The position numbers were made by a program, and so were the translations under genes. Positions 17,832-20,590 of a DNA stretch of 64,000 nucleotides are shown one piece after another; positions within the stretch are counted from its first letter, which is position 1; every line of letters starts with the position of its first letter. This DNA is from Octopus vulgaris (Eukaryota): the NCBI GenBank assembly GCA_951406725.2, contig OX597823.1, positions 32,984,001 to 33,048,000 of the forward strand, in the 5' to 3' direction. The notes beneath the pieces were generated by a model. The model searched no databases. It was not told where the DNA came from and saw only the letters and a list, made by a program, of their open reading frames with translations.

Positions 17832-20428
17832 TATATATACAGATGTATATGTACATGCTTACATCTATACGTATATATATATATATATGCATGTGTGTGT
17901 GTGTTTGTGGGCACAGAACGTTACAGAGCATGTACAACAAAAGAGTACGAAGCACGAGTACATGGAACATGAACTATTCTTTCAAACAATGATGACACAA
18001 ATGGAAAACAAAACAAACAACATAAAGAATTACCCGTCATCAGTTATTAGCTGTTTTTCTAGTCTCGTATTTCAAGCAAAGTATGTTTAATACTTTCACT
18101 ATTAATATTGAAACTATTATCTTACATATATACATGCATATATAAACACACGCACATATATATATATATATGCATATATAAACACACGCACATATATATA
18201 TATATATGCATATATAAACACACGCACATATATATATATATATATATATATATGCATGTATATATGTGTATATACATCTGCACATATATATGTCTCATGT
18301 TTGATCTTTGACTTCTGGCCGAAATCAGATCGCCATGTTGATTCGCTAGCTTCTGCACGCATATTTTTTTCTCTCCTTCTTTCTGTGATTTTTTTCTCTG
18401 TGTATCTTTCTGTTGAAGAGCGTAGGCTCGAAACGTTAAAGACTTGTTTTATTTATATTTCCTGAGTGCCATACTAATACAATTGTTTGTTTGTATTCCA
18501 CCTGCCTTTGTCTTTTGTTTATTTCCGTAAACCTGCCTTCGTCTTTTGTCTATTTTCATAAAGCTTCCCATTATATATATATATATATATATGTAAAAAT
18601 ATATGTATGCATGTGTTCTGCTTTTTATATTTAACCCTACAGCCTCTTATGTGGTGGTTTAATAAAGTATGTGATTGAGTATTATCTGGTAATGGATATT
18701 TGATTTAGATGTATTTCTCCATTTTCTTATCTTGTATATATATATATATATATATATGTAGGTACAGGAGGTGGTCAAACTCTGCATAAGGAGTAGACAA
18801 CCACCATGTATACATGTGTATATATATATGTGTGTATGTATATATGTATATATGTGTATGTGTGTGTGTGTGTCTCTCTCTGTCTGTCTGTGTTTGTACC
18901 TCCACCATTGCTTGACAACTGATATTGCTGTGTTTACGTCCCCATAACTTAGCCATTTGACAAAACACTCTCATAGAATAAGTACTTGGCTTATAAAGAA
19001 TAAATCAGGTAGCTGATTTATTCAACTAAAGCATGTCCACAGTCACATGACCGAAACAAGTAAAACTATGAAAAAACTATACCATTTTAATCCCAAGTAA
19101 CATTGAGTATCTCTGCTAGTATATATATGTATGCATACATACACATACACACCACACGCACACACTTCCCCTTCCCCACACACATACACAAACATTAGAC
19201 ACATGCTCACACACACATAATGTTCATCTCTCCTTATCCACCCCATACATCTCGCACTCTTCCCATGCATTATGTCTGTCTCCCATCACTCCATCACACT
19301 CCTGCAACCTACCTGCCCATACATCATCTCTCTCTCTCTCTCATCTTTGTGTGTGTGTGTGTGTATAGCAGCAGTCCCATCCCAGATATGAAACCATTCC
19401 TTCATTACAGGTCACACGTTATGTCTTGTAGTTGTTCAAGACAGAGTATTTTCTGGCTTTGAGCTGTAGTTTTTACTGTGTTACTGAAGTGTGTTCCCTA
19501 TAAGACACCGTTAATGACAGTGAGGTCCAGCAAGTGAAGCAATCAAGAGGGTTTTAGTTGTGTGCTGGTCATGTTTAAGGGTTTAAGGGTGCATGTGTAA
19601 CAATGTTTTCTGGATGTGTGCAGTGATTGTAATATTTGTCTGTTGCTGAAGGTGGCAGGTGTTAAGATTGGCACGACCATACTGGAGGAGATTTTCAATG
19701 TCTACTGCTCTGGTGGAATGAGAGGTATTAATGGGGTGGTTTGAGATGTATTGCTGGTGTGACGATTAGGATTTAGTGTGAGGTGCACTACAGGGGTCAA
19801 ACACTGTTCTACAGGAATATTATGTATATCTGGGGCAGTAGCATAGCTAAGGATGATGGAATGGGCAGTTTGCCTGAGGCAGCACTTTTTATAGAAATGG
19901 CACATTGGGGTTTGCTGTATAAGCTGTACTGGTCCAGCAGGAGCAGGGGACAAACTCAGTGGCTGTCTCCTGGTGGCTCATACACTAGCTACAACACTGA
20001 TCATTGATAGGGTTTGAATATTTAACAGAATGAGGAATTAGTCTGGATCAGAACTTACCAAGTTTTTTCCAAGCCAACCCTGAATAGATTTCATTTAAAC
20101 ACTTATTCACTTCAGTCCGTCGAATGGTCGTGTGGAAACGAAACTCATCTTTATGTCTGCTGATTACATCAGCAGTGATGGCTGTGGACAAATTTGATAG
20201 TGAGAAAATTGTCTGATCAATTTCTTGATATAAAGGATTTGGTTTTGTGTCTGCAAAGAATATTTCATGAACATTTGGTTCCATTTTGAGAGCATTCAGT
20301 AAAAGTATCCTGGCAGCTTCTTGAGCCCGGTCTCGACCTTTTTTATCATAAGGAGAGAGATTATAAAGTGTGACAACATTTAGCTTTTTACTGGTTAAAC
20401 TACAAATTGAAGACCTTGACGAGTTCAT
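11560..20428 (-). CDS. Uncharacterised 307-aa protein with C-terminal polybasic-CaaX motif; join(complement 20428-20059,17289-17205,15809-15616,11834-11560)
   Basis: ATG at 20428 (aaaATGa, in-frame TAG upstream). Donors G|gtaagt, GG|gtaagt, G|gtaaac; acceptors cattag, tcttttgtctctggcag, ttttcag. Phases 1/2/1 fit and the total is 924 nt = 308 codons without an internal stop. The sequence is complex and non-repetitive: MNSSRSS...[28 protein letters not shown]...[18 protein letters not shown]...[20 protein letters not shown]...[14 protein letters not shown]...LKDRCVLM*. Confidence 0.8.
12490..12702 (-). mobile_element. tRNA-derived SINE, family B
   Basis: ggcacaagacctgaaattt...ggatgaaaggcaaagtcgacctc...gaatttgaactcagaa (B-box-like gagttcaaattc on the minus strand). 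Confidence 0.8.
12945..13170. repeat. Compound (CA)/(TA)/(TG) microsatellite
   Basis: Direct inspection; source of three spurious ORFs. Confidence 0.95.
13188..14022 (-). mobile_element. Internally deleted mariner (Tc1/mariner) transposon with both TIRs
   Basis: TIRs tatgagatatagtcaaaaagtatccgacctt / aaggttggacactttttgactacacctcata flanked by TA. The remnant transposase [26 protein letters not shown]...CFQQW is a decayed YSPDLAPxD motif. Length about 835 bp. Confidence 0.92.
14060..14260. repeat. Degenerate approximately 31-bp minisatellite (also near 14550-14640)
   Basis: Recurring ttctacacaatatagtacc(c)ctacacttaa-like units. Confidence 0.6.
15616..15809 (-). CDS. Uncharacterised CaaX gene, coding exon 3 ([10 protein letters not shown]...CFLNQQK)
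   Basis: Long pyrimidine tract plus cag|G; AAAG|gtaaac donor; a second acceptor at 15936 is also possible. Confidence 0.75.
16124..16240. repeat. About 28-32-bp tandem repeat x4
   Basis: ccctggccataacaat(aaat)aagatcttgggta. Confidence 0.85.
17205..17289 (-). CDS. Uncharacterised CaaX gene, coding exon 2 ([29 protein letters not shown])
   Basis: cattag|GT and GG|gtaagt; its only open frame bridges the phase-1 donor and the phase-2 acceptor. Confidence 0.7.
17322..17600 (+). mobile_element. Non-autonomous Helitron-like 5' portion
   Basis: A|TCTATATATATAAAA start followed by a (TGTC)/(TGTA) tract, the same layout as the element at 38048-38415; 3' end not identified. Confidence 0.5.
18360..18572 (+). 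mobile_element. Penelope-like terminal repeat with hammerhead-like motif; related copies at about 7452-7575 (-) and 52277-52410 (-)
   Basis: TCTTT-CTGTTGA-A-GAGC(GTAG)GCTC-GAAA-CG-TT-AAAGA at 18405-18442; downstream taatac...acctgc...gtcttttg shared by three copies. Confidence 0.6.
20059..20428 (-). CDS. Uncharacterised CaaX gene, first coding exon (acceptor at 20590, 162-nt leader)
   Basis: ORF 20048..20428 runs into a canonical G|gtaagt donor at 20059/20058. Confidence 0.82.
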
Positions 20429-20590
20429 TTTCCTGAAGATTCTCTTAGTCTATGTATAGTTATTTTTCTAGAATCTGTTCTTTGTGTTCCAATCCTGCGA
20501 TTCTTCACTTCTGTCATACCACATGGAAATACTGAGGAGTTGAATGGCTTTCTTTAGTAATCATTGTAAATGTGTGTCTGTTATCTGCAT
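20425..20590 (-). promoter_or_regulatory. Chain of upstream ORFs joined by AUGA overlaps in the leader of the CaaX gene
   Basis: uORF1 20590-20561 (9 aa), uORF2 20564-20514 (16 aa), uORF3 20517-20425 (30 aa); each TGA overlaps the next ATG, and the last one is the main ATG. A fourth, nested uORF lies at 20524-20468 (18 aa). Confidence 0.55.

Follow-up and report, generated by a model that had tools for sequence, protein, structure and literature searches.

Three short upstream reading frames (uORFs) in the leader of a 307-aa octopus protein, P0001, are joined to one another and to the main ORF by ATGA, in which one frame's stop codon overlaps the next frame's start codon. The question raised by this locus is whether such a chain hands ribosomes on to the main start. 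The window, i.e. the whole 64,000-nucleotide stretch analysed here, carries the three ATGA overlaps on the minus strand at 20564, 20517 and 20428 (junctions 1 to 3), and these and the four uORFs lie exactly where a sequence-only reading had placed them (Table 1). That reading had proposed a reinitiation relay running through a 162-nt leader, or else a strong translational throttle. We consider it quite probable that this is an ordinary leader, spliced and AT-rich, which measures at least 462 nt and contains several uORFs, that the chain arose by chance, and that the leader, under conventional scanning, reduces translation of P0001. The triple chain is probably not a functional device.

The spliced transcript and its leader

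Spliced contigs from three studies (runs X2, X6 and X13) carry the leader exon, which settles its exonic status. Each matches the window in a single block (20057-20590/2) and continues on both sides with letters that are not those of the introns. The 5′ loose end of X2 maps to 28603-28632 and ends in AG ahead of a GT donor, whilst the loose end on its 3′ side coincides with the first letters of the exon at 17289. The sequencing runs have no RNA label on record; that the contigs derive from mRNA is shown by their joints, which lie at GT..AG sites at distances of 8 kb and 2.8 kb. Run X17, with one short piece over the leader and zero differences, was left out of the analysis. The acceptor at 20590 is identical in the three studies and has the best pyrimidine tract among the AGs scanned, and none of the listed joints uses an inner acceptor. 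One piece from run X1 (20542-20806) runs past the acceptor into the intron and may represent unspliced RNA, DNA or a different 5′ end. The 307-aa ORF described from the genomic letters is correct once spliced, the four coding exons giving P0001 letter for letter, but unspliced it meets a stop after 126 aa.

Table 1. Features of the P0001 transcript and its leader, in positions of the window.
Feature	Position	Strand	Remarks
Upstream leader exon, 3′ end	28601..28632	-	GT donor after 28601; loose end of X2, 32 nt seen directly
Extra uAUG	28624..28626	-	11-codon ORF spans the splice joint; TAA stop 20583-20581, over the uORF1 start
Intron in 5′ leader, ~8 kb	20591..28600	-	GT..AG
uORF1	20561..20590	-	9 aa; start codon gone in organism E
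uORF2	20514..20564	-	16 aa; junction 1 ATGA 20564-20561 is ACGA in organism E
uORF3	20425..20517	-	30 aa; TGA overlaps main ATG; organism E: 3 silent and 6 replacement changes
uORF4, nested	20468..20524	-	18 aa, main frame, weak start context
TGGAA	20487..20491	-	63 nt 5′ of main ATG; organism E has TGGGA, core of TURBS motif 1
Coding exon 1 of P0001 (307 aa)	20059..20428	-	Exon shared with the uORFs; GT donor after 20059
Coding exon 2	17205..17289	-	
Coding exon 3	15616..15809	-	
Last coding exon, including stop	11560..11834	-	Protein C-terminus CVLM

A further 298 (X2) and 353 (X6) letters lie 5′ of the matched block, therefore the leader measures at least 462 nt (X2) or at least 517 nt (X6). 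ORFs begun by uAUGs lie inside the spliced leader. Directly shown are the last 32 of the upstream letters; on the assumption that the others follow the genome colinearly upstream of 28601, the leader would hold 14-17 uAUGs. The description of a 162-nt leader tiled wholly by the chain fails both on this length and on the extra AUG at 28626, whose 11-codon ORF overruns the start of uORF1. The chain covers about one third of the leader, and the first AUG met by a scanning ribosome is not that of uORF1.

Two other origins for the leader were tried and rejected. An upstream protein-coding ORF ending in the leader exon was rejected, as the joint yields only the 11-codon ORF and the colinear upstream stretch has no ORF of more than 32 codons. 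A decayed N-terminal extension is at odds with the homologs from gastropods and other cephalopods, which begin at or after the octopus Met, and is further weakened by three main-frame stops within 162 nt. Bivalve homologs have N-termini longer than that of the octopus protein.

No A-to-I editing at the junctions was seen among the listed differences of X1, X2, X6 and X13, these being contigs that drop rare variants and in which partial editing would be invisible. Within the coding part, a T>C change at 20396 (plus strand) in three RNA-type runs resembles A-to-I editing; the same change occurs in the two large genome-sized runs X16 and X20, and it is likely a silent variant.

The remainder of the window contains several other features. 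Within the leader intron, a 391-bp unit is present twice at 99% identity at 22779-24883, together with a nested 72/313-bp GC-rich tandem array of strong strand skew. At 20920-21400 a highly abundant interspersed repeat, which we take to be SINE-like, occurs twice, and in RNA-type runs its contig depth reaches the tens of thousands. Upstream on the same strand, 36124-48583 (-) contains exons of a GWT1/PIG-W gene (Pfam PF06423), the last ending near 36124. A frame at 6111-6500 (+) looks like an exon stretch of a chitinase domain; Pfam gave no match to it, and we assume it to be CHID1-like. The frames at 13247-13900 (-) and 34383-34700 (+), for which the parts scanned have no Pfam match at E 0.01, look like decayed mariner-type transposase and retroelement C-terminal fragments.

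Chance expectation and divergence of the chain

Dinucleotide shuffling, with the main ATGA held fixed, yielded a chain of at least three overlaps 56 times in 20,000 for the 162 nt and 23 times in 10,000 for the 462 nt. An order-2 Markov model produced it in 0.17-0.23% of cases, or 0.39-0.50% when UAAUG and UGAUG overlaps were also counted. The 162 nt contain 4 ATGs, close to the shuffle mean of 3.1. Across the window, triple chains precede 2 of 2,870 ATGs with a 162-nt look-back and 4 of 2,854 with a 462-nt look-back, the studied ATG included; the other triple ATGA chains, at 14908 (+), 37304 (-) and 44079 (-), stand at no known gene start. The expectation is 6-18 triple chains per 10,000 genes having long enough leaders, a figure that is arithmetic from the shuffles and not a count of real leaders. 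The chain is rare for a single gene (about 1 in 350, p ~0.003), yet expected across a genome scan, and the caution in the sequence-only reading that chance in AT-rich DNA might suffice was well placed, at 0.2-0.3% of shuffles.

We next turn to close relatives. Organisms B and C keep all three junctions, with only 4 and 2 listed leader differences respectively; because these are so few, the retention says little. Organism E is represented by a single contig of depth 12.7 that is ~94% identical over 19896-20900. Its sole amino-acid change, C110S, is also present in the ortholog P0141, which supports the contig. The start codon of uORF1 is lost in organism E (ACT), as is junction 1 (ACGA), leaving a chain of one. 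Junctions 2 and 3 are kept, uORF3 is open and no leader indel is present among the listed differences, although one can be surer of the loss of junction 1 than of the retention of junctions 2 and 3. Of the 11 chain-critical letters, three are changed among the listed differences, where about one would be expected, and uORF3 has gained a second in-frame AUG. The sequence-only reading had held that junctions lost amid conserved flanks would speak against it, and this is the case for junction 1.

Counts for organism E come from 40 listed of 59 differences, such that the leader figure is a floor and the intron figure a ceiling. At least 14 of 162 leader positions are changed, compared with 9 of 370 in the coding part (Fisher p 0.002), and the flanking introns, with at most 37 of 473 changed, do not differ from the leader (p 0.74); silent sites of the coding part have changed at a rate of ~10%. 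No purifying selection on the uORF3 peptide was seen in this comparison: its silent and replacement changes fit the neutral expectation (p 0.44, on small numbers), whereas the main ORF has 8 silent changes to 1 replacement (p 4e-5). By these counts the leader appears to diverge at the intron rate and uORF3 to drift neutrally.

Wider orthologs were compared as proteins, an ATGA start requiring a second codon with an initial A. Such a start is impossible in 20 of 32 homologs, obligatory in 8 and possible in 3, whilst one has no Met. The Argonauta ortholog has MY at the aligned start and so could not have ATGA. In a cuttlefish-type cluster of 8 members, including Sepia pharaonis, seven start with ME ten residues further in and one with ML, and ATGA is impossible in all eight. 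Junction 3 would therefore seem, as far as these predicted starts can be relied upon, to be confined to octopuses.

Known systems and rival explanations

The available parts of two articles state that a ribosome reinitiates downstream of the stop after a short uORF, that repression is typical of a uORF which overlaps the main start, and that restart on an overlapped AUG usually requires an RNA element, with an efficiency of 3-20% in caliciviruses (PMC10275272, PMC5972666). Neutral uORF peptides are described as the rule (PMC7889888, in the part available). Applied to the octopus leader, these rules would have scanning ribosomes begin at some of the uAUGs, several of which would drain them. Ribosomes completing a short uORF would resume scanning and reinitiate well downstream. 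The uORF3 stop (TGA at 20427-20425) makes this an out-of-frame short uORF ending at the main start, and ribosomes translating it would halt atop the main AUG and mostly be lost, so that uORF3 would behave as an overlapping repressive uORF. The main AUG, which has an A at -3, would be reached through leaky scanning and delayed reinitiation, and not along the chain. It is plausible that the leader damps translation of P0001 in this manner, as the ordinary outcome of many uAUGs.

Of the systems compared, ordinary uORF-rich leaders whose last uORF overlaps the main start come nearest to this one, human SLAMF1 being the closest described case. Metazoan uORF leaders with an oORF and 'scenario 1' reinitiation, as far as the available parts of PMC10275272 and PMC7889888 describe them, are alike in their out-of-frame uORFs of 9-30 codons with neutral peptides and in having one uORF that ends over the main start; here, in contrast, three uORFs abut by ATGA and the overlap with the main ORF is just 4 nt. 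The long-isoform leader of SLAMF1 also has four uORFs, the last of ~30 codons with its stop overlapping the main start, and it contains a UGGGA-related sequence, as does the octopus leader, with a putative TURBS role in both. The SLAMF1 overlap is UGAUG where that of the octopus is AUGA, and the part of the article available describes no chain among the upstream uORFs (PMC5972666).

Viral stop-start systems are alike in the overlap itself but differ in what surrounds it. In TURBS termination-reinitiation the stop and restart overlap or lie at most ~20 nt apart; here ATGA is found at three junctions. As in calicivirus and influenza B TURBS, a UGGGA-like pentamer stands 63 nt upstream of the last overlap, but its core in the octopus is UGGAA, a motif 2/2* stem is unsupported, and the upstream ORF is short and unconstrained where the viral one is a capsid gene. 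The victorivirus AUGA stop-restart shares an AUGA overlap that lacks motif 1. It requires a pseudoknot in the 32 nt upstream, whereas pseudoknot-free folding of the octopus leader predicts no stable structure.

The leader as a whole folds worse than the mean of its shuffles (z +1.33), and an Rfam search with it gave no match. TURBS motifs are located 40-90 nt upstream according to the available part of PMC5972666, and the motif 1 core UGGGA is absent from 40-90 nt upstream of the stop in this leader and in those of organisms B and C. The sequence-only reading had likewise seen no such core, which is confirmed for the 162-nt leader of this genome. At -63 from the main AUG, this genome and organisms B and C have UGGAA and organism E has the exact UGGGA. 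An exact UGGGA at -80..-40 occurs in 2.0-3.4% of shuffles (3.2% for the leader of organism E), and a one-mismatch version in 38-44%. The UGGGA of organism E is predicted to be paired (unpaired probability 0.02-0.33). A search for the motif 2/2* stem returned weak folds that vary by species, and in no species compared did the uORF3 region fold better than shuffles (z -1.2 to +1.1 in both cases). The UGGGA observation was made post hoc, and it is all that a TURBS-like reading has in its support.

These data bear on four rival explanations. In one, only junction 3 works: a TURBS-like, 18S-pairing motif at -63 would hold ribosomes that have finished uORF3 and let them restart on the main AUG, calicivirus-style. 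Organisms A, B, C and E all retain junction 3 and an open uORF3, the exact UGGGA of organism E falls inside the 40-90 nt TURBS zone, and SLAMF1 offers a described cellular look-alike (PMC5972666, in the part available). We nevertheless regard this as very unlikely, given that the one-mismatch UGGAA of this genome, B and C is common among shuffles, that the motif of organism E is predicted to be paired in a uORF3 that folds no better than shuffles, that it was picked out post hoc, and that neither Argonauta nor the cuttlefish-type cluster could have the junction. An extended form, in which the overlap of uORF3 and the main ORF would be a virus-style termination-reinitiation site with UGG(G/A)A tethering the 40S, and in which two AUGA links would have been added upstream in the lineage to make a relay, also strikes us as very improbable. 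The selected three-step relay of the sequence-only reading, with one ribosome passing through uORF1, uORF2, uORF3 and the main ORF by three back-steps, can draw on the exact geometry, on p ~0.003 for one gene and on the retention of the chain in B and C. Against it, links 1 and 2 are lost in organism E, further AUGs lie upstream with one ORF crossing the uORF1 start, and there is no motif 1 core. Moreover, at the 3-20% per step of caliciviruses (PMC10275272, in the part available), three steps would by our estimate pass less than 1% of ribosomes. With the chain covering only part of the leader, the leader changing at the intron rate, junction 3 unavailable to both Argonauta and the cuttlefish-type cluster, and no structure of TURBS type that outperforms shuffles, the relay is not supported, and we give it almost no credence.

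A stress switch is another candidate, in which the short uORFs would permit rescanning and uORF3 would normally trap ribosomes but be skipped at low ternary complex. The layout recalls the delayed reinitiation of ATF4 and GCN4, where a short uORF is followed by one that blocks the main start: a 9-codon uORF is followed 44 nt on by an out-of-frame uORF ending at the main start, which lies 133 nt past the uORF1 stop, and organism E has its extra in-frame AUG in uORF3. The uORFs of ATF4 and GCN4 are deeply conserved, however, whereas uORF1 has been lost within octopuses (organism E), and with a leader that lacks constraint and a layout that is frequent by chance, such a switch seems distinctly unlikely. 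Lastly, the productive mRNA could be a shorter isoform, with a nearer start site or acceptor, that omits most of the uORFs, in which case the long leader would matter little. The X1 piece spanning the acceptor into the intron would fit this, and start-site choice is reported to govern uORF inclusion in Arabidopsis (bioRxiv 10.1101/2024.04.25.591216, in the part available). We judge it unlikely, as the same 20590 acceptor recurs in three studies with no listed joint at an inner one; the piece from X1 could come from unspliced RNA or from DNA, and contigs cannot show starts. The ordinary uORF-rich leader, acting by scanning, remains our preferred explanation.

The encoded protein family and significance

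In Octopus vulgaris and O. sinensis, P0001 carries the annotation uncharacterised. Its family shows 43-50% identity across bivalves and gastropods and extends, through more distant members, to a nemertean and a leech. Pfam gave no match to P0001, nor did the ESM Atlas give a usable one. The structure model is confident and helical (pLDDT 86.7); a Foldseek search of the PDB with it found no match at E 0.001, and the best VIA-align Z of 5.2 is uninformative for a helical model. Locus searches found no relatives in metagenome contigs or, for one protein, in prokaryote genomes. C-x-x-M following basic residues ends 31 of 32 close homologs, P0001 itself ending in CVLM, and we take this to be a putative CaaX prenylation signal.

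In distant homologs of metagenome type, a weak match to the Hint family (E 8.5e-6 to 0.006, below Pfam cut-offs) comes after the P0001 domain. With a profile built from 8 such sequences, E values of 3e-12 to 6e-26 were obtained for 30 of 31 animal proteins. In the 4 sequences having a Hint module, its opening Cys aligns with the CaaX Cys. The homologs tied to this lead are P0084, P0088, P0111 and P0126, and the P0001 gene itself occupies 11560-20428 (-). Speculatively, the alignment would allow that the self-cleaving Hint tail was lost in animals, which would have put its first Cys to use in lipidation. No papers linking Hint and CaaX were found in the open-access literature, and none on the locus, on chained AUGA uORFs or on the P0001 family (open-access literature, supplements excluded).

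As it stands the chain is of little significance, uORF-crowded leaders being common and a few triple AUGA chains per genome being expected by chance. It does provide a calibration for scans: a triple AUGA chain is rare per gene and expected per genome. Were the last junction to work in a TURBS-like manner, it would answer a question left open in two reviews, namely whether TURBS-type reinitiation takes place on cellular mRNAs, and UGGGA and UGGAA would then form a natural allele pair. The P0001 family may be a better lead than the uORF chain, in that its CaaX-like end aligns with the Hint cleavage site of its distant homologs.
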